Below are positions 4,873 through 50,277 of a stretch of DNA of 64,000 nucleotides, in pieces. Within the stretch, counting starts at the first letter, position 1. Every line of letters begins with the position of its first letter. Source of the stretch: Patescibacteria group bacterium. Its GTDB lineage: Bacteria > Patescibacteriota > Minisyncoccia > UBA6257 > JAAZHW01. The translations under genes and the position numbers were made by a program. Where the stretch lies: the NCBI GenBank assembly GCA_026415775.1, contig JAOAGL010000001.1, forward strand, positions 111,057 through 175,056, given 5' to 3'. The notes below the pieces were generated by a model. The model ran no database searches and was not told where the DNA came from. It was given only the letters and a program-made list of their open reading frames with translations.

Positions 4873-5445
4873 TTAAAAATGATTGTTTGTTTTCTTTTCT
4901 TTATGGATAGCTTCAATTAATTGTTCTACTAATTCTTTCGGGTTACTATTAAAAATTACTTTGCCGGGTCCGCGACGTGCTTTTTCAATAATTTCTTTAA
5001 GCATATCTGAAATACCACCTGTTCCTTCTAGAACTCCTGTGAGTTTGTTTTCTTCAAATGCGACAGTAAATTCGTTTAATGTACCAATACGACCGCAAAT
5101 AGTTATAACAGCATCAGCAGCGCGGGTTAAAAGTAAATTGCGTCCTGCGTATCCCGACCCAGTATAGATAATTAAATCGTGATAATCAATTGGAAGATGA
5201 TATTTTTTAACATGTTCTTGTTCGGAAATAGCAGGTGATAAACCTATAACAATTCCCCCTGCTTCTTTGGCGGCTTTAGCCACCCAATAAGGAGCACCTG
5301 TTGTGGCACCTGTTACAACAACACAATCATGTTTAACTAATTCCCGTCCCAATTCCATAGACATTTCCATTGCTTGGGGACTACAAAGACCAGTTTCGGC
5401 AGCGCCGGAAATGGCAATTTTGATTTTTGGTTTAAAAATTTCCAT
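4873..5445 (-). CDS. LOG/TIGR00725-family Rossmann-fold protein (lysine decarboxylase-like/SLOG)
   Basis: VVTGATTGAPYWVAKAAKEAGGIVIGL and CGRIGTLNEF fit the LOG/DprA-like Rossmann motifs GGGxGxM and PGGxGTxxE. Confidence 0.5.
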   Translation of the reverse strand: MEIFKPKIKIAISGAAETGLCSPQAMEMSMELGRELVKHDCVVVTGATTGAPYWVAKAAKEAGGIVIGLSPAISEQEHVKKYHLPIDYHDLIIYTGSGYAGRNLLLTRAADAVITICGRIGTLNEFTVAFEENKLTGVLEGTGGISDMLKEIIEKARRGPGKVIFNSNPKELVEQLIEAIHKEKKTNNHF

Positions 5446-5492
5446 ATAGAATAATTATAATTAAAAAATTTTAAAAATAAAAATTTAATCAG

Positions 5493-5565
5493 TCCGCCCA
5501 GCAGGACTCGAACCTGCAACCGTTTGCTTAAGAGGCAACTGCTCTGCCAATTGAGCTATGGGCGG
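5493..5565 (-). tRNA. tRNA-Lys (anticodon CTT)
   Basis: Reverse complement CCGCCCATAGCTCAATTGGCAGAGCAGTTGCCTCTTAAGCAACGGTTGCAGGTTCGAGTCCTGCTGGGCGGA folds as a cloverleaf. Anticodon loop CTCTTAA. Confidence 0.75.
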
Positions 5566-6615: not shown

Positions 6616-6755
6616 TAGAAATTGCAAGTTCTTTTTTAAATTTAATACTTTTCTTTTAAAAATCAACCCCATTGCATATTAAAAGAAAAATTGAAAGAAA
6701 AAATTATGTAAGTTATAATATCCAAAATAGTCAATTTGCCCCTCCTATTCCCCTT

Positions 6756-8279
6756 ATGCGATTTACTATTAAAGATAAGCGAATAGTAATCAAGAGATTT
6801 TTTCTCACTAAAACCTCTTCTTCTTTCACCCTCATTGAACTTTTAATTGTTATCGCTATTTTAGCTGTGTTAATGTCTGTGATTGTTGTTAGCTTGAATC
6901 CCGCAGAAATGTTGAAAAGAACCAGAGATGTGAGACGCCAGGCAGATTTAAAAGCTATTAACTCAGCTTTATTAATTTATTCTGTTTCCAATCCTAATGG
7001 TTTTTTTGGTTCTTCCACCATTGTTTATATCTCCATCCCTTCTAACTATTCTAATTGTTCTGATTTGGGCTTACCGCCACTTCCCTCAGGTTGGTCTTAT
7101 CATTGTTCAAACGCTGATAATTACCGAAAAATTGATGGCAGCGGTTGGATTCCAGTTAACTTTAATTCTTTAGATGTTGGCGCTCCTATTTCTGCTTTGC
7201 CCATTGACCCCATTAATTCAACCACTTCAGGCAATTATTATACTTATGTTACCGGTGGTTCTTGGGAATTAACCGCTCTTTTTGAATCACAAAAATATCG
7301 CCAAGAAAGCGCTCCCGCTGATGGCGGAGATGTGGTGAATGGTTTTGAGGTCGGCAATAATTTAACCCTCACTCCCATTATCTTTCCTCACAACTGGATT
7401 AAAGTGCCGGGCAGTTCTCTTTACGGCACCAATGATTTCTGGGTGATGCAATTTGAAGCTAAATACTCTAAAACCGGTTCTGGCGCTGATGATGCTGGAG
7501 CTTGTTATTATACTTCTGGCTACGATACCTGGGATTGGGGCAAAACCGGAACCGACTGTCCGTCTTCTTGGTCAAACACTAATGTCGTTTCCTCTCCTTA
7601 TGGTTCGCCGATTGCCGGTGTTAGTCATAATGAAGCCAAAGCCATTTGTCAATCATTAGGCGGTCATCTGATAACTAATCAAGAATGGATGACCATTGTC
7701 AGAAATGCTGAGCAAGTGGAAGAGAATTGGTCAGGTGGTTCGGTTGGTTCTGGCTGTCTTTTTCGGGGTAATGTCGGTTCTAACGATGCCTGCGGCTATG
7801 ATGGCGCTAACCCGGAAAAGGGAATTAATCGCAATCCCAAAGCCAAATTAATTCTTTCCAATAATGAAGAAATCTGGGATATGGCGGGCAATGTTTGGGA
7901 ACATGTAATGAAAGATTTAAATGATACTCTGGTCAATAACCATCCTACCATTCTTTCCGACAACACCTGGAAGTGGTCAGAACATACAGCCAGCTGGACT
8001 AGTTATGGTGATCTTTCTTACAATGAAATCAGACCTTCCAATTCTTCTTGGAACGTCAATCAAGGAATGGGCAGGATTTATCATTATGATGGTTATTACA
8101 GCGGCCGTGTTCTGCTTCGCGGCGGGTATTGGGATGGTGGTGACAGTGCCGGGGCGTTGACGCTGTACTTGATATTGGGACGCGACGACTCAGAGCAGCC
8201 CTGTGGGGTTTCGCTGCGCCCGCTGATCCCCGTGAGATACCTCCGTATCTCACGGGGTGAAGGGGTTTTGGTAATTTAA
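6756..8279 (+). CDS. DGR target protein: N-terminal type IV pilin-like methylation motif fused to a C-terminal FGE-sulfatase/C-type-lectin-fold domain carrying the VR. The 3' end as annotated is probably frameshifted.
   Basis: SFTLIELLIVIAILAVLMSV is a prepilin-type N-terminal domain. HNEAKAICQSLGGHLITNQEWM...GNVWEHV matches the FGE/sulfatase-modifying-factor fold. The VR occupies the last codons. ATG at 6756 is the first in-frame Met (the tool's 6672 start is TTG). In the frame set by TR the protein would end ...WDATTQSSPVGFRCAR-TGA at 8226. Confidence 0.7.
   Translation: MRFTIKDKRIVIKRFFLTKTSSSFTLIELLIVIAILAVLMSVIVVSLNPAEMLKRTRDVRRQADLKAINSALLIYSVSNPNGFFGSSTIVYISIPSNYSNCSDLGLPPLPSGWSYHCSNADNYRKIDGSGWIPVNFNSLDVGAPISALPIDPINSTTSGNYYTYVTGGSWELTALFESQKYRQESAPADGGDVVNGFEVGNNLTLTPIIFPHNWIKVPGSSLYGTNDFWVMQFEAKYSKTGSGADDAGACYYTSGYDTWDWGKTGTDCPSSWSNTNVVSSPYGSPIAGVSHNEAKAICQSLGGHLITNQEWMTIVRNAEQVEENWSGGSVGSGCLFRGNVGSNDACGYDGANPEKGINRNPKAKLILSNNEEIWDMAGNVWEHVMKDLNDTLVNNHPTILSDNTWKWSEHTASWTSYGDLSYNEIRPSNSSWNVNQGMGRIYHYDGYYSGRVLLRGGYWDGGDSAGALTLYLILGRDDSEQPCGVSLRPLIPVRYLRISRGEGVLVI
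8100..8224 (+). repeat. DGR variable repeat (VR)
   Basis: Aligns to TR 8742-8865. It differs at TR positions a>t, aa>gg, a>g, t>g, a>t, a>ta (1-nt indel), a>g, a>g, a>g, aa>cc. The last 24 nt (gtggggtttcgctgcgcccgct) are identical and GC-rich, like an initiation-of-mutagenic-homing (IMH) element. Confidence 0.85.
8228..8257 (+). promoter_or_regulatory. Perfect 12-bp stem / 6-nt loop hairpin 4 nt downstream of VR (DGR homing-associated hairpin/cruciform)
   Basis: ccccgtgagata-cctccg-tatctcacgggg. The position immediately 3' of the VR/IMH mirrors the hairpin that enhances retrohoming in the Bordetella phage BPP-1 DGR. Confidence 0.6.
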
Positions 8280-8307
8280 TCTAAAATCTAAAATTTAAAA
8301 AACTTTC

Positions 8308-8667
8308 ATGTTAAACGATTTGATTGTTTTTCAAAAGACCTATGATTTTTACGTTTGGCAAAAAACTATTATTCTTCATCTAGCCAAAGTTCATAAATAT
8401 AGTTTGGGTATCCAATTAGAAAACGAAACATTAAATCTTTTAAAACAGATAGTCAAAGCAAATTTAAGCCGAACAGCCAAAAAAGAAGAAATAGAAAATT
8501 GTTTAGTATCTTTGGAAATTATTAAAGTTTTGATAAGGGTCGGCCACGAATTTAACAGAGAAGGCGGGATTAGTTTGAAAAATTATCAACTAGCATCAGA
8601 GAAACTTGCAGAAATCGGAAAATTGTTGGGTGGCTGGTTGAAAAATTTCAGCGGCCGGGCGCTTTAA
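8308..8667 (+). CDS. avd: Avd-like accessory variability determinant (four-helix-bundle protein family)
   Basis: 119 aa. LIVFQKTYDFYVWQK near the N-terminus and ISLKNYQLASEKLAEIGKLLGGWLKN at the C-terminus resemble the four-helix-bundle (23S rRNA intervening-sequence protein) family to which Avd belongs. Sits between the target and TR. Confidence 0.7.
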   Translation: MLNDLIVFQKTYDFYVWQKTIILHLAKVHKYSLGIQLENETLNLLKQIVKANLSRTAKKEEIENCLVSLEIIKVLIRVGHEFNREGGISLKNYQLASEKLAEIGKLLGGWLKNFSGRAL

Positions 8668-8741
8668 TGGCATTATAAGCCGTAGAGAATCCGGCCGCCC
8701 CGTTCTGTTTTTTACAGGACGGGCGGGGGATAAAATCAATA

Positions 8742-8865
8742 AGCGGCCGTGTTCTGCTTCGCGGCGGGAATTGGGATAATGGTGACAATGCCGGGGCGTT
8801 TACGCTGAACTTGAATTGGGACACGACGACTCAGAACAACAATGTGGGGTTTCGCTGCGCCCGCT
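8742..8865 (+). repeat. DGR template repeat (TR)
   Basis: Invariant donor copy of the VR. In the frame matching the VR it carries 8 AAY (Asn) codons (aat, aat, aat, aac, aat, aac, aac, aat) and encodes ...NNNVGFRCAR. Lies in the avd-RT intergenic region. Confidence 0.85.
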
Positions 8866-8989
8866 TCAGTGGTTATAATTTGCCAGAACTTTGCCTTTTC
8901 TTTGGAAAGGCGAAGGTGTGCTTTACAAAACCCCAGATTTTATTCCCTCCCGATATGATTTTATCATAGGGAAAATATTAGGCTTTTAC

Positions 8990-9037
8990 CCCGAGGCAGT
9001 GAAAGTAGTTAAATTATTACGAAATTTCTGCCTCGGG
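8990..9037 (+). other. 10-bp stem hairpin within the structured TR-RT spacer
   Basis: cccgaggcag...ctgcctcggg with a 28-nt loop. Additional small hairpins nearby: atgat-ttt-atcat and acgtc-ttgcgat-gacgt. DGR TR-spacer RNAs are known to be structured and needed for cDNA priming. Confidence 0.4.
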
Positions 9038-9080
9038 CCATTAAGCCCCCTTTTAATATAACGTCTTGCGATGACGTAAA

Positions 9081-9103
9081 TATAGATATAGATATAGATA
9101 TAT
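9081..9103 (+). repeat. hexanucleotide microsatellite (TATAGA/ATAGAT, about 3.5 units) abutting the RT start codon
   Basis: tatagatatagatatagatat directly precedes and overlaps the ATG at 9102. Confidence 0.6.
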
Positions 9104-10142
9104 GTTTGATAAAATCTGCTCTTTTCAAAATTTATACTCAGCTTATTTAAAAGCGCGAAAAGCCAAAAGATATCGGCCTTATATTTTAGAATTCAATTTT
9201 AATTTAGAAGAAAATTTACTGAATCTCCAAAAAGATTTATTAAACTTGACTTATCAGCCAGGACCATATCGTCAATTCACTGTTTGTGATTCTAAAAAGC
9301 GGCTCATTAAGGCGCCGGCGTTTCGTGACCGCATCATCCATCACGCTTTATGCAATGTCATTGAGCCGATTTTTGACCGAGGATTTATTTTCGACAGTTA
9401 TGCTTGCAGGAAAAATAAAGGCACCCATCGGGCAGTTAAAAGATTGGGGAATTTCATTAAATCATTAAAAACGCGTTTGGGGGAAAGTACGACCAGTGTC
9501 GAAACTTATTGCCTTAAATGCGATGTTTCCAAATATTTTGAAAATATAGACCATAATCTTTTGTTAGGTTTTATTGCAAAGAAAATTAAAGATAAGAGAG
9601 TTTTCTGGTTGATTAAACGAATTATTGAAAGCGATTCGCCGGGGATACCCATTGGCAATTTAACCAGCCAGCTTTTCGCCAATATTTATTTGAACGAATT
9701 AGACCAGTTCATAAAACATTATTTAAGAGAAAAGTATTATCTTCGCTATATGGACGATTTTTTAATTTTAGATATCAATAAAAAGCGATTGCATCAAATT
9801 AAGCGCCAAATTCAAAAATTTTTAAGAGATAAATTAAGATTAGAATTACACCCCAAAAAAGCCAATATTTTTCCGATAAATAAAGGAATTGATTTTTTGG
9901 GTTATAAAATATTTTTTAATTATCGTTTGCTGCGCAAAAATACCGTTAAACGTTTTATTAGAAGATTAAAAAAACATCAACAACAATTAAAAAATAATTT
10001 AATAAAAATTAATGATTTTAAAAAAACATTTTACTCTTGGTTGGTTTATGCTCAATTTGGAAAATCTTGGCGATTAATAAAAGATTTAAAGTTTAAAGAA
10101 AGACTTTGTTCAATACATAATGCCAGATATATATTATATTAG
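9102..10142 (+). CDS. DGR reverse transcriptase
   Basis: 346 aa. RT motifs include PGIPIGNLTSQLFANIYL (the DGR-RT-specific motif 4, as in Bordetella Brt IGNLTSQ) and the catalytic YMDD (RYMDDFLIL). Confidence 0.85.
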   Translation: MFDKICSFQNLYSAYLKARKAKRYRPYILEFNFNLEENLLNLQKDLLNLTYQPGPYRQFTVCDSKKRLIKAPAFRDRIIHHALCNVIEPIFDRGFIFDSYACRKNKGTHRAVKRLGNFIKSLKTRLGESTTSVETYCLKCDVSKYFENIDHNLLLGFIAKKIKDKRVFWLIKRIIESDSPGIPIGNLTSQLFANIYLNELDQFIKHYLREKYYLRYMDDFLILDINKKRLHQIKRQIQKFLRDKLRLELHPKKANIFPINKGIDFLGYKIFFNYRLLRKNTVKRFIRRLKKHQQQLKNNLIKINDFKKTFYSWLVYAQFGKSWRLIKDLKFKERLCSIHNARYILY

Positions 10143-10221
10143 ATTTTGTTAAACTTCAATCTCAGGGCATTTTTAATCATCGGCATTGTCAATTTAATGG
10201 ATTTAAGATAAGATAAGAAAG

Positions 10222-11712
10222 ATGAAAATTCCCCAAGAAATTTTAGCCATTATTAAAAAGTTTGAAGAAAGCCCTCAAAAATTTGAGGTTTATTTGGTTG
10301 GTGGCTGTGTGAGGGATTTGTTGCTTTCGCGCGAGCCAAAAGATTGGGATTTAACAACGAATGCCACACCTTCTGAGATCCAAAAATTATTTCCAAAAAG
10401 TTTTTATGAAAATCAATTTGGCACGGTTTCAGTGATTACTGATTCGGAAAAAGAAAGTTTAAAAATTGTTGAGATTACTCCCTTTCGTTTGGAAGGAAAA
10501 TATTCTGATAAACGCCATCCTGATGAAATTAAATTTGCTAAAACTTTGAAGGAGGATTTAGCGCGCCGCGATTTTACAATTAATGCAATGGCGCTTCAGG
10601 TTAATACTTCGACATTAAAAACAAAATTGATTGATTATTTTGGCGGCGAGAAGGATTTAAAAGATAAAATTATTCGAGCCGTAGGCGATCCAGAAAAAAG
10701 ATTTAATGAGGATGCTTTAAGGTTAATGAGGGCAGTGCGTTGCGCTGTTGAGTTAGATTTTGAAATTGAAGAAAAAACTCAAAGAGCGATTGTGGAATTA
10801 GCCAATAATTTAGCTTATATTTCTCGCGAAAGAATTCGTGATGAATTAATAAAGATTTTAATGTGCGAAAATGCAGCCAAAGGGATTCAATTGCTTTATG
10901 AATTAAAATTATTGCCTTATGTAATAAAGGAATTAGAAGAAGGAGTTAATAGTATCGGAGTAACAAAAAAACTAAAAGAGCATATTAAATACGAAAAATT
11001 AACGACCTTTGAACATTTATTAAAGACTTTAGATTATGCCGCAAAAAATAATTTTAATTTAGAGACTCGTTTAGCAGCTTTGCTCCATGATATTGCCAAA
11101 CCTCGGACTAAAGAAGGAGAAGGATTAGAAGCGACTTTTAAAGGACACGAACGATTGGGGGCAAAAATGGTAAAAGAAATTTTAATGCGATTGCATTTTT
11201 CAAATAAAGTTATTGATAAAGTAGTAAAATTAGTACGTTGGCATTTCTTCTTTTATGATGTAGACAAAGTAACGCCAGCTGGTGTAAGGCGATTGATTAG
11301 AAATGTTGGCGCAGAAAATATTGATGATTTATTAAAATTACGCGAAGCTGATCGGAGCGGATCGGGATTGCCAAAAATTTCTTCATATCGGCTCAGGCAT
11401 TTGCGTTATATGATTGAAAAAGTAAAAAAAGACCCGATTGAACCAAAAATGTTAGAAGTAAAAGGTAATGATGTAATGGAAATTTTAAATATTCCGCCAT
11501 CACCCAAAGTTGGTTGGGTTTTAAATATTCTTTTAGAAGAAGTTTTGGAAGATCCTCAAAAAAATAAAAGAGATTATTTATTAAAACGGATAGAAGAATT
11601 AAAAGAAAAAGATGAAGGGGAATTACAAAAAATGGCTGAAGAGGCAAAACGGCGGATTGAAGCAATAGAAGAAGATGTTGACCAGCAAATAAGAAAAAAA
11701 TACAATGTTTAA
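10222..11712 (+). CDS. cca: CCA-adding enzyme (tRNA nucleotidyltransferase) with HD domain
   Basis: Pol-beta head motif GGCVRDLLL...D.D and HD domain LAALLHDIAKP. C-terminal K/E-rich extension. Confidence 0.8.
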   Translation: MKIPQEILAIIKKFEESPQKFEVYLVGGCVRDLLLSREPKDWDLTTNATPSEIQKLFPKSFYENQFGTVSVITDSEKESLKIVEITPFRLEGKYSDKRHPDEIKFAKTLKEDLARRDFTINAMALQVNTSTLKTKLIDYFGGEKDLKDKIIRAVGDPEKRFNEDALRLMRAVRCAVELDFEIEEKTQRAIVELANNLAYISRERIRDELIKILMCENAAKGIQLLYELKLLPYVIKELEEGVNSIGVTKKLKEHIKYEKLTTFEHLLKTLDYAAKNNFNLETRLAALLHDIAKPRTKEGEGLEATFKGHERLGAKMVKEILMRLHFSNKVIDKVVKLVRWHFFFYDVDKVTPAGVRRLIRNVGAENIDDLLKLREADRSGSGLPKISSYRLRHLRYMIEKVKKDPIEPKMLEVKGNDVMEILNIPPSPKVGWVLNILLEEVLEDPQKNKRDYLLKRIEELKEKDEGELQKMAEEAKRRIEAIEEDVDQQIRKKYNV

Positions 11713-14555: not shown

Positions 14556-14656
14556 AATTATTTTCAAAAACCCCTTTCCTTGACAAAATATAAAAATAAA
14601 GTAGAATTTAGGCAGCTTTTTGAAAAAGAAAATTTTTTTTAAAAGGAGGTTTTACA

Positions 14657-16074
14657 TGAAAAAAAATTTAGGAGTGTTTGTGGTACTGCTGCTGCTGGCA
14701 ACAGCGGCAGCTGGGCAAGAAATTGAGTTGAAGGAGCTGGGAAGGGCTCCTTTGAGTCCATATCTCCAGTCCCCAGCGGAGGTAAGAACTCTTCTCGGTC
14801 GCGTGAATGAAGAGCTGGGCAGGGCTTTGGATTTTTTCCCTGGTGGAGGGCTCGGCGAACAAGTTTATGCCTCTCTCTATGAACAGTTGCAGAATTTGAA
14901 AATGGAAGTAGTAGATATTCATCCAAACCAAAAAATGGTTTGGATGATGTACTCGAAGGGACGTCTCCTGAAGTCGGTGGTTTGGAAAGGCAATGAGTCT
15001 TTCCAAGCGTACAAGTTCCGGCTGGAAGTGGAGGGAAAAATTTTTACATTTATAGTTCCAATTCGTTGCGGCAACATCGCGCTTCTCGAAATGCGAGAAG
15101 CGCCGGTAGCTCCACAACCACCAGCTCCAGTTCCACCGGCTCCTCAACCGCCAACTTCGCAACCACCAGCTCCTACTCCGCAGCCAATCCCAGTTCCGCA
15201 ACCGCCAGCTCCTCAGCCAACATCGGTGACTCCGGTCATGGTTCATTGGACTCCCACTATAAAAATAAAAGTGGGAGGGGGATGGGCAGGAATAAAATTT
15301 CCCGCACCAGTAGATTTTTCCAGCTCACGCGTTGACTTCTTCTCTCTTATTCCCGCTGATTCCTCCGTCTTCTATTGCGAAGACGGGGTAGCCTTCTGGT
15401 ACTACAGTCCTAGAAACTCCATTCCCTTTGCCGTCGGCCAGAGCGTACCGCTCTGGCGGCACGAGGTGGTAGAAATTCAGAAGGGAAAGAATTTTCCCTT
15501 CTACGCGCAGATAGAAATCGAGTTCGCGCGTAATTTATTCATTACCGGATCCTTTTTCGAACTCGGAAAATACTCTTCTTTCCAATACGAAGGAAAGGAG
15601 AGTATGGTATTGGACGAGGTACGTCTCCTCGGCCAATACCAGGGACAAGAAGGGCAGACCTGCCCCCCCACGTACGTCTATTACGTGGGGTTACACCGGG
15701 ACTGGCATGAAATCCTGGTCCGGGAGAACATCCGGATTCAGGAGTTTTCAGCTGGTATTTCATACCAGCTGAAGGTGGTGAGGAATGTTTTTGTCACCCC
15801 GCAGGGTGGGGTGACGTGGCAGACCCGGCGGGGTACCCGAGTGACGGATACCACTATTAGCAAGTGGTATCCGTTTAAGGAGGCCCCTCTCGAGAAAGAG
15901 AGGGTAACCGAGGTGGTGGAAAAGGTAAAATCCACCACAACCCACCCTTATGTGGGGATTGGGTTGGAAATCGGTCCCTTCTTTCTCGAAGGTCGCCGTC
16001 TGTTCGGCGACCAGCCGGGACCAATGAAAATCTCTCCCTGGCGTGTCCAGGGAGGGATCCTCCTAAAAATTTAA
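14657..16074 (+). CDS. secreted Pro-rich-linker protein with C-terminal beta-rich (barrel-like) domain, encoded in a compositionally foreign GC-rich island
   Basis: Strong SD (aaggagg) 7 nt before the ATG at 14657. Signal peptide MKKNLGVFVVLLLLATAAAGQE. APVAPQPPAPVPPAPQPP linker. C-terminal half has alternating hydrophobic beta-strand periodicity. Codon usage is GC3-rich (ctg, ggc, ccg), unlike its neighbours. Confidence 0.6.
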
Positions 16075-50211: not shown

Positions 50212-50230
50212 AGAAAAAGATAAAACAAAA

Positions 50231-50250
50231 AATCGAGTTAAAACTCGATT
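50231..50250. terminator. bidirectional terminator between convergent genes
   Basis: aatcgagtt-aa-aactcgatt perfect 9-bp stem flanked by A-run and T-run. Confidence 0.55.
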
Positions 50251-50277
50251 TTTTGTTTTTGGATAAGATTGTAAACT

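Follow-up and report, generated by a model that had tools for sequence, protein, structure and literature searches.

The 64,000-nt stretch analysed here, called the window throughout, covers positions 111,057 to 175,056 of contig JAOAGL010000001.1 from a Patescibacteria group bacterium (assembly GCA_026415775.1), and its DNA (33.7% GC) carries on the + strand a complete diversity-generating retroelement (DGR), in which the target gene, its variable repeat (VR), a perfect hairpin, avd, the template repeat (TR) and the reverse transcriptase (RT) gene follow each other in that order. The hairpin, located at 8228–8257 just past the VR, and its probable role as a target-site structure of the DGR are the subject of this study. 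The target gene as assembled (6756–8279, +) starts with the ATG at 6756, which is also the start in the gene calls of the sister contigs, while the mechanical open reading frame (ORF) of 6672–8279 opens at a TTG at 6672. A σ70-like promoter candidate for the gene is located at 6691–6719 (+), with TTGAAA and TATAAT spaced by 17 nucleotides and 11 of 12 positions matching, a match to the consensus only. The product carries an N-terminal methylation motif of the prepilin type and, at its C-terminus, an FGE-sulfatase/C-type-lectin (CLec) fold and is, as judged from its sequence, a hypervariable pilin-like surface protein; the N-terminus encoded by 6756–8226 is similar to GspG/ComGC and is fused to the CLec variable domain.

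The VR (8100–8224, +, 125 nt) differs from the TR (8742–8865, +, 124 nt with 25 adenines) by 10 A-to-N substitutions, a T-to-G change at 8159 and an insertion of one base, so that 10 of the 12 differences fall at TR adenines, and it is the only VR in the 64 kb, the 22-mer GTGGGGTTTCGCTGCGCCCGCT being present exactly twice. The accessory variability determinant is encoded by avd (8308–8667, +), with matches to Pfam bAvd and NCBIfam DivGenRetAVD; the FGE-sulfatase and bAvd Pfam matches exceed their cut-offs, and the DivGenRetAVD score of 72.4 bits is slightly under the cut-off of 80. The RT (9102–10142, +) shows the motifs IGNLTSQ and YMDD and a Pfam RVT_1 match of 9.2e-22. An RT of the DGR type has an RVT_1 domain with the [ILV]GxxxSQ motif and YxDD, and this motif is specific to DGRs. 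The defining features of a DGR are thus found together, namely a DGR-type RT, an adenine-biased TR/VR pair and a CLec target with a C-terminal VR plus avd, and by its sequence the locus is a genuine DGR cassette. Between TR and RT there is a structured spacer RNA (8870–9037, +) that matches Rfam RT-14 below threshold (36.1 bits, E 0.0056, where the gathering score is 48.1) and presumably serves to recruit RT-Avd as the spacer RNA of the DGR; the spacer includes a stem at 8889–8915 that is flagged by the terminator scan.

The extra base of the VR is located at 8173 (+; TR TTGAATTGGG, VR TTGATATTGGG) and puts the last 17 codons out of frame. The peptide in the TR frame ends with ...NWDTTTQNNNVGFRCARF, whereas the assembled VR reads ...LYLILGRDDSEQPCGVSLRPLIPVRYLRISRGEGVLVI before its stop and the ORF passes through the hairpin to end at 8279, leaving the target as assembled without the conserved ...WDxTTQxxxVGFRCAR end. 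In the canonical frame past the insertion the codons read WDATTQSSPVGFRCAR and then stop, that is ...VGFRCAR with a TGA at 8224–8226, so that in a gene without the shift a single nucleotide lies between stop codon and hairpin. Five sister assemblies, L161–L165, were found by exact-protein look-ups of Avd and RT, and the target is in frame in four of them: L162 and L165 have no shift and L163 and L164 have compensating -1 and +1 changes, while in L161 a -1 change makes the ORF end with the TGA at 8258–8260. All four indels among the five alleles are located at TR adenine runs, and VR indels and frameshifts opposite TR adenines were seen earlier by Wu et al. (PMC5758913). The +1 of the window fits a real DGR-made indel, but with assemblies as opposed to reads an artefact of a mixed VR population, or for both out-of-frame alleles, those of the window and L161, a chimeric consensus, is possible as well.

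The sister cassettes are about 99.5% identical, at a background divergence of 0.3–0.7%, and yet there are five distinct VR alleles among the six assemblies. Over the six sequences, variable columns constitute 0.3–1.6% of the cassette, 28% (29/104) of the variable part of the VR and 12% of the 220 bases past the RT gene. Compared with their own TRs, the five VR alleles show 54 A-to-N substitutions, six substitutions at other bases and four indels. Private single-nucleotide polymorphisms of the TR are mirrored in the VR of the same strain (in the window the T in GACAATGCC, which is C in the others, and in L162 the T in AGAATAAC), indicating that sequence has been transferred from TR to VR since the strains diverged. 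On this population evidence, as distinct from an experiment, the DGR is active and copies adenine-specific errors from TR to VR in natural populations. A sequence-only reading of the same stretch had argued for activity from the presence of the hairpin, which is not a valid step, because a hairpin is neither needed nor sufficient for that conclusion; activity is shown independently by the sister VRs, and the window allele is itself frameshifted. The difference in conservation between the cassette outside the VR (6672–10142) and the adjoining 10143–10362, seen in the alignment with L161, L162 and L165, suggests that the cassette has spread or been replaced recently, or that it is under unusually strong constraint.

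The stem-loop itself (8228–8257, +) consists of a 5' arm at 8228–8240, the loop CTCC at 8241–8244 and a 3' arm at 8245–8257. Its inverted repeat is ccccgtgagata-cctccg-tatctcacgggg, exactly as the sequence-only reading gave it, and the check proposed there, a prediction of secondary structure, returned the perfect stem in the DNA fold (-14.4 kcal/mol) as well as in the RNA fold (-23.6 kcal/mol). The hairpin had been described as one of 12 bp; it is real and perfect, but the stem has 13 bp, since C8240 pairs with G8245 in DNA and RNA folding, and eight of the pairs (62%) are G:C. The distance of 4 nt to the VR is also as described, the hairpin beginning with the fourth base past 8224, where VR and TR are last identical, after a spacer of three nucleotides, GAT. 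VR/TR comparison and alignment of the flanks gave no counterpart of the hairpin in the TR flank, and the structure is thus an inverted repeat within 4–34 bp downstream of the VR that is absent from the TR, the placement known for the Bordetella phage BPP-1 and used by the program MyDGR. No Rfam family covering the hairpin was found, and the window holds no second copy of the sequence with up to three mismatches. That the inverted repeat is a chance feature, as could be said of any single locus, is effectively refuted: none of 200 shuffled sequences folds equally well (z about -6.7), and a first-order Markov simulation of the window gives an expectation of 0.1 perfect hairpins of at least 12 bp per 64 kb, with seven observed.

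RT scans of genome and metagenome contigs returned 160 related loci with 39–64% identity, mostly from Patescibacteria/candidate phyla radiation (CPR) and DPANN. There was no RT relative above 64% identity in the collections scanned, and the VR flanks cannot be aligned across the stem, so what can be compared is a different stem in the same place. TR/VR pairs were taken from self-BLAST, with at least 70% of the mismatches at adenines of one copy, which gave 92 non-redundant VR 3' flanks. A strong perfect hairpin is present within 100 nt of the VR in 38 of these (41%), as against 63 of 1071 other ORF ends on the same contigs (6%; odds ratio 11, Fisher p 1e-19), a 7-fold enrichment, and 15 of 90 TR flanks (17%). 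The loops are of 3–4 nt in 35 of the 38 VR hairpins, and read on the sense strand 16 are of the type G..A and two of the type T..C, a bias that points to a strand-specific hairpin of the sense strand and not to a symmetric cruciform. Locus L080 is, from its sequence, a within-genome case of a structure that is kept while its sequence changes: its two VRs (5430–5555 and 7977–8097, each with the following 50 nt or so) have the differing stems ACCGCC/GGCGGT and TCCCGACC/GGTCGGGA, with a common GAA loop and a common CG(A)TTTTTTTT tail; long T-runs follow these hairpins, which are also terminator-like. In the DPANN-type loci L036, L042, L045, L051, L077, L114, L130 and L154 there is a conserved GGTAC(G)(T) motif directly after the VR, often GGTACGTCG, and usually then a short GC stem with a C-GNA-G triloop.

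T-runs such as those of L080 belong to a different explanation, in which the hairpin works mainly at the RNA level in the target transcript, as a weak intrinsic terminator or attenuator or as a stabiliser of the 3' end, and would part strong transcription of the target from a low expression of avd, TR and RT; this is compatible with a role in the DGR, and as the main function we consider it possible but not likely. The RNA stem is highly stable and is located 1 nt past the stop codon in the canonical frame, an outer 6-bp helix (GCCCGCU/AGGGGU) could extend it so that UUU would follow directly, and no promoter-like site comparable to the strong candidate preceding the target was called by the promoter scan between the hairpin and avd. 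Guo et al. also remark on the terminator-like nature of such structures (PMC3240598). The hairpin is like a Rho-independent terminator in that a stop codon closely precedes the stable stem-loop and a short run of T's is found nearby, but this T-run does not follow the stem directly. The T-rich tract mentioned in the sequence-only reading does exist, but it is no more than a TTTT at 8266–8269, 8 nt past the stem, and not a tract at 8265–8270. The terminator scan gave no call at 8228–8257, whereas the two clear terminators of the window, at 1731–1765 and 50222–50259, have the T-run directly after the stem. Among the relatives, a T-run comes after only five of the 38 VR hairpins, VR flanks exceed the other gene ends of the same contigs 7-fold in hairpins, and Wu et al. 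found evidence for termination in only a minority of DGRs (PMC5758913).

The VR ends with a GC-rich tail, gtggggtttcgctgcgcccgct (8203–8224, +), that is adenine-free with 73% GC, encodes VGFRCAR and is common to VR and TR; it is the equivalent of the (GC)14 part of the initiation of mutagenic homing (IMH) element of BPP-1. A tail of 24 nt had been reported before, of which the GC-richness and the identity with the TR stand, while the length is 22 nt. As in an IMH, this GC-rich 3' end of the VR bounds the A-to-N mutagenesis. The tail has no variable column in the six assemblies, for which the lack of adenines is a sufficient reason by itself. Its codons, GTG GGG TTT CGC TGC GCC CGC, are rare ones with a joint probability of 2.5e-5 under the codon usage of the window, and this improbable choice suggests a constraint on the nucleotides themselves, which an IMH-like element would be expected to show.

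After the tail the VR continues with GA-[hairpin]-TGAAGGGGTTTT and the TR with TCAGTGGTTAT (8866–8876, +), an IMH*-like flank whose sequence is kept after the TRs of L004 and L007 as well. When the flanks of both repeats were aligned between the window and L004, L083, L007 and L008, the block AGGGGTTTT at 8261–8269 (+) was found to be the VR counterpart of AGTGGTTAT in the TR, and there is thus a second short block of VR/TR relation past the hairpin, AGGGGTT at 8261–8267 against AGTGGTT at 8868–8874; the relation is short and is supported mainly by the four relatives. In all aligned TRs and VRs a block (A/G)G(G/T)GGTT is located two bases past the GCxCG(C/T)T end. It falls within the perfect homology of VR and TR in L083 and L008, and in the window, L004 and L007 the TR has AGTGGTT and the VR AGGGGTT or GGGGGTT. 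Of the five aligned loci, only the window and L004 have a palindrome in the VR copy, inserted past the stop codon and ahead of the AGGGGTT-type block. From these alignments the hairpin is placed inside the IMH-like region, where it splits the GC-rich block from the AGGGGTT block, rather than after the IMH. Since TR and VR do not differ in the GC-rich block, information specific to the VR must lie beyond it, in the hairpin, in AGGGGTTTT and in the 7-nt repeats described below, and the hairpin, as the largest VR-specific feature, could be what distinguishes the recipient from the donor.

The two palindromes have unrelated stems, CCCCGTGAGATAC/GTATCTCACGGGG in the window and TTTGTTGACCC/GGGTCAACAAA (11 bp) in L004, but the same location and the same flanks (GCGCCCGCT-stop ... 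AGGGGTTTTAATCTAAAATCT, and likewise GCGCCCGCT-stop ... AGGGGTTTT..AATCTAAAATCT). In hairpins of the BPP-1 type, efficient retrohoming depends on the structure of the stem and not on its sequence, and the differing stem of L004 at this site is the one indirect hint of this here. The cassette of L004 is permuted, with the RT, the TR and a 117-aa ORF preceding the target, indicating that the shared flank goes with the VR rather than with a promoter of avd. A scan of viral contigs with the pattern stop-[15–45 nt]-AGGGGTTT gave chance matches only, inside GC-rich phage genes. The hairpin might also be a palindrome without function, either slippage-generated or a small mobile element, that was inserted between the stop codon and AGGGGTT and is tolerated there. 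There are about 33 extra bases compared to L083, L007 and L008, bounded by a direct repeat of TGA (cgcTGA-t-[hairpin]-TGA-aggggtt), the closest relatives have no hairpin at all, and the loop departs from the functional consensus. Against this, the window has no second copy, and the palindrome of L004 at exactly the same spot, together with the strong enrichment of hairpins after VRs, argues for a selected structure at this site and not an accident; we find the neutral origin rather improbable.

Past the hairpin, at 8271–8298 (+), the window has tandem 7-nt repeats, with AATCTAA twice at 8278–8291 and degenerate copies flanking these, and L162 has three copies in place of two. Pyrimidine-rich tandem repeats of 7–8 nt (AATCTAA, NNATCTG, CCTTTAA, CTTTTAC) follow VRs across the RT clade, being found in the VR 3' flanks of L003, L004, L005, L007, L008, L025, L026 and L028, of L046, L092, L098, L102, L106, L134 and L158, and of others, usually between the VR and the GC hairpin and with a copy spacing of predominantly 7–8 nt. 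A 5-mer recurring at least three times within 70 nt is present in 36% of the VR flanks, 9.7% of the other ORF ends and 2% of the TR flanks (Fisher p 2e-10); an autocorrelation score also separates the groups overall (Mann-Whitney p 9e-15) but discriminates poorly at fixed thresholds, so that the recurrence of k-mers is the better measure. The repeats follow each VR of the multi-target loci and the VR of the permuted L004. A role of AATCTAA as an avd promoter only was considered and rejected, as the same motif is found after the VR of L004, where the target is downstream of RT and TR, and repeats are found after both VRs of multi-target loci. A description of these repeats was not found in the literature searched.

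It is conceivable, and put forward here tentatively, that the loci share an undescribed composite target-site module at the VR 3' end that is distributed over the clade (CPR, DPANN and others) and is made up of the GC-rich block free of adenine, a GGGGTT-type block that the TR has too, two to six tandem repeats of 7–8 nt and a stem-loop. The hairpin would then be a VR-only insertion that splits a bipartite IMH, and the repeats possibly a cis element for recognition of the target. The stem-loop precedes the repeats in the window and L004 and comes after them in most relatives. If such a module exists, folding of the hairpin would rejoin the two halves of the IMH, a structural means of telling VR from TR, and the repeats might for instance be binding sites for Avd-RT or a host factor.

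Taken together, the analysis leads us to hold, with moderate confidence, that the hairpin serves an active chromosomal DGR as the stem-loop of its target site. The mechanism is inferred by analogy with BPP-1 (PMC3240598) and with a reconstitution in E. coli from 2026 (PMC12875486). RT-Avd would produce an adenine-mutagenised complementary DNA (cDNA) from the TR RNA, and this cDNA would pair with the sense strand of the VR. If the target is transcribed in the direction of replication, the sense strand of the VR would be the lagging-strand template, and on the single-stranded sense strand, or on a negatively supercoiled duplex, the 13-bp hairpin or cruciform could form beside the GC-rich block. 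It would mark the VR over the TR as recipient and hold the site open, which would raise the efficiency of integration and leave its position unfixed. Over the whole window the + strand has a positive GC skew and holds most of the genes, indicating that the target is probably co-directional with replication, the orientation favoured in the E. coli work (PMC12875486).

Several observations weigh against a target-site role. The inference from GC skew is confounded by the bias in gene strand. The hairpin is identical in 30 of 30 positions in all five sister assemblies, but with whole cassettes at this level of identity its invariance says nothing on selection of the stem. The five closest RT relatives (60–64% identity) have no hairpin within 100 nt of the VR, and only eight of the 30 closest have a strong one, of which that of L004 alone is at the same position as in the window. 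None of the eight has a G..A loop, which is found in 16 of the 29 strong hairpins of more distant relatives, and the CTCC loop of the window breaks the G..A pattern of the clade as well, so that the subclade may have another loop requirement, or else the structure is of little consequence here. From its absence in the closest relatives the hairpin is dispensable in the subclade, in agreement with the share of DGRs that carry one in the survey of Wu et al. (PMC5758913). The conservation of the stem in related DGRs, by which the sequence-only reading proposed to judge the hairpin, is accordingly mixed: hairpins are enriched after VRs across the clade, but the nearest relatives lack one and the stem of L004 is unrelated.

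Elsewhere in the window, a GC island at 14620–16074 (45–52% GC, compared to 33.7% for the genome) contains eight perfect hairpins of at least 9 bp between 14919 and 15874 and is spanned by a TTG-start ORF of 484 aa that has no Pfam match and no meaningful Rfam match. The island may represent a structured RNA of large size or else an orphan gene.

How the mutagenised cDNA finds and replaces the VR is the least understood step of DGRs (PMC12875486), and the knowledge of target-site stem-loops rests almost wholly on one phage element. In BPP-1 and other phage DGRs the hairpins have GC-rich stems of 7–10 bp and GRNA loops and are located 4–34 bp past the VR (Guo et al. 2011, PMC3240598), and the same figures, with a loop of 4 nt, constitute the hairpin rule of MyDGR (PMC6602519). 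The role of a hairpin of this type has been confirmed in the E. coli reconstitution (PMC12875486). The hairpin of the window is thus where the stem-loops of DGR targets are known to sit (PMC3240598), as the sequence-only reading had it, but the further statement that it sets directionality does not agree with BPP-1, in which the hairpin affects the efficiency and not the site or direction of homing, and direction is set by IMH versus IMH* (PMC3240598). Wu et al. (2018, PMC5758913) catalogued GC-rich inverted repeats past the IMH for 34% of 372 DGRs; in the clade studied here, with 41%, they are likewise optional and are placed alike. By itself, such a hairpin is to be expected and is not a discovery; the split IMH-like arrangement and the 7–8-nt repeats are more unusual.

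The hairpin resembles that of BPP-1 in being a perfect inverted repeat with a 4-nt loop, on the VR side only, a few bases past the VR/TR homology and beside a GC-rich adenine-free block, in a cassette with the order target-avd-TR-RT. Two differences add to the points against a target-site role, namely the stem of 13 bp with 62% GC, which is outside the range of 7–10 bp although more stable, and the loop CTCC (GGAG on the antisense strand), which is not GRNA; in BPP-1 a CTTT loop, or a loop longer by 2 nt, nearly abolished homing (PMC3240598), and the MyDGR rule would miss the hairpin of the window. It is furthermore located between the GC-rich block and AGGGGTT and not after an IMH of 21 bp, and the DGR is chromosomal, in an AT-rich host genome, with a pilin-like target. 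Like IMH and IMH*, the GC-rich 3' segment of the VR is identical in the TR and is the 3' limit of the A-to-N changes, and a partly diverged sequence follows, GA...AGGGGTTTT in the VR and TCAGTGGTTAT in the TR. The block is however of 22 nt and not a GC-only run of 14 bp, it contains T's and encodes VGFRCAR, and the diverged part is interrupted by the hairpin. Targets of group IIC introns, which are terminator stem-loops recognised as single-stranded DNA (PMC3240598), offer a second parallel of a retroelement with a one-strand DNA stem-loop in its target, and the strand-biased G..A loops of the clade fit such recognition of one strand, although the DGR has no intron or ribozyme and replaces a VR guided by homology instead of inserting. 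Together with the relatives that have no stem-loop, the locus provides a comparison set for the contribution of the structure, being a natural and demonstrably active chromosomal DGR that breaks the rules of BPP-1 in stem length, in loop sequence and in the placement of the hairpin inside the IMH-like region.

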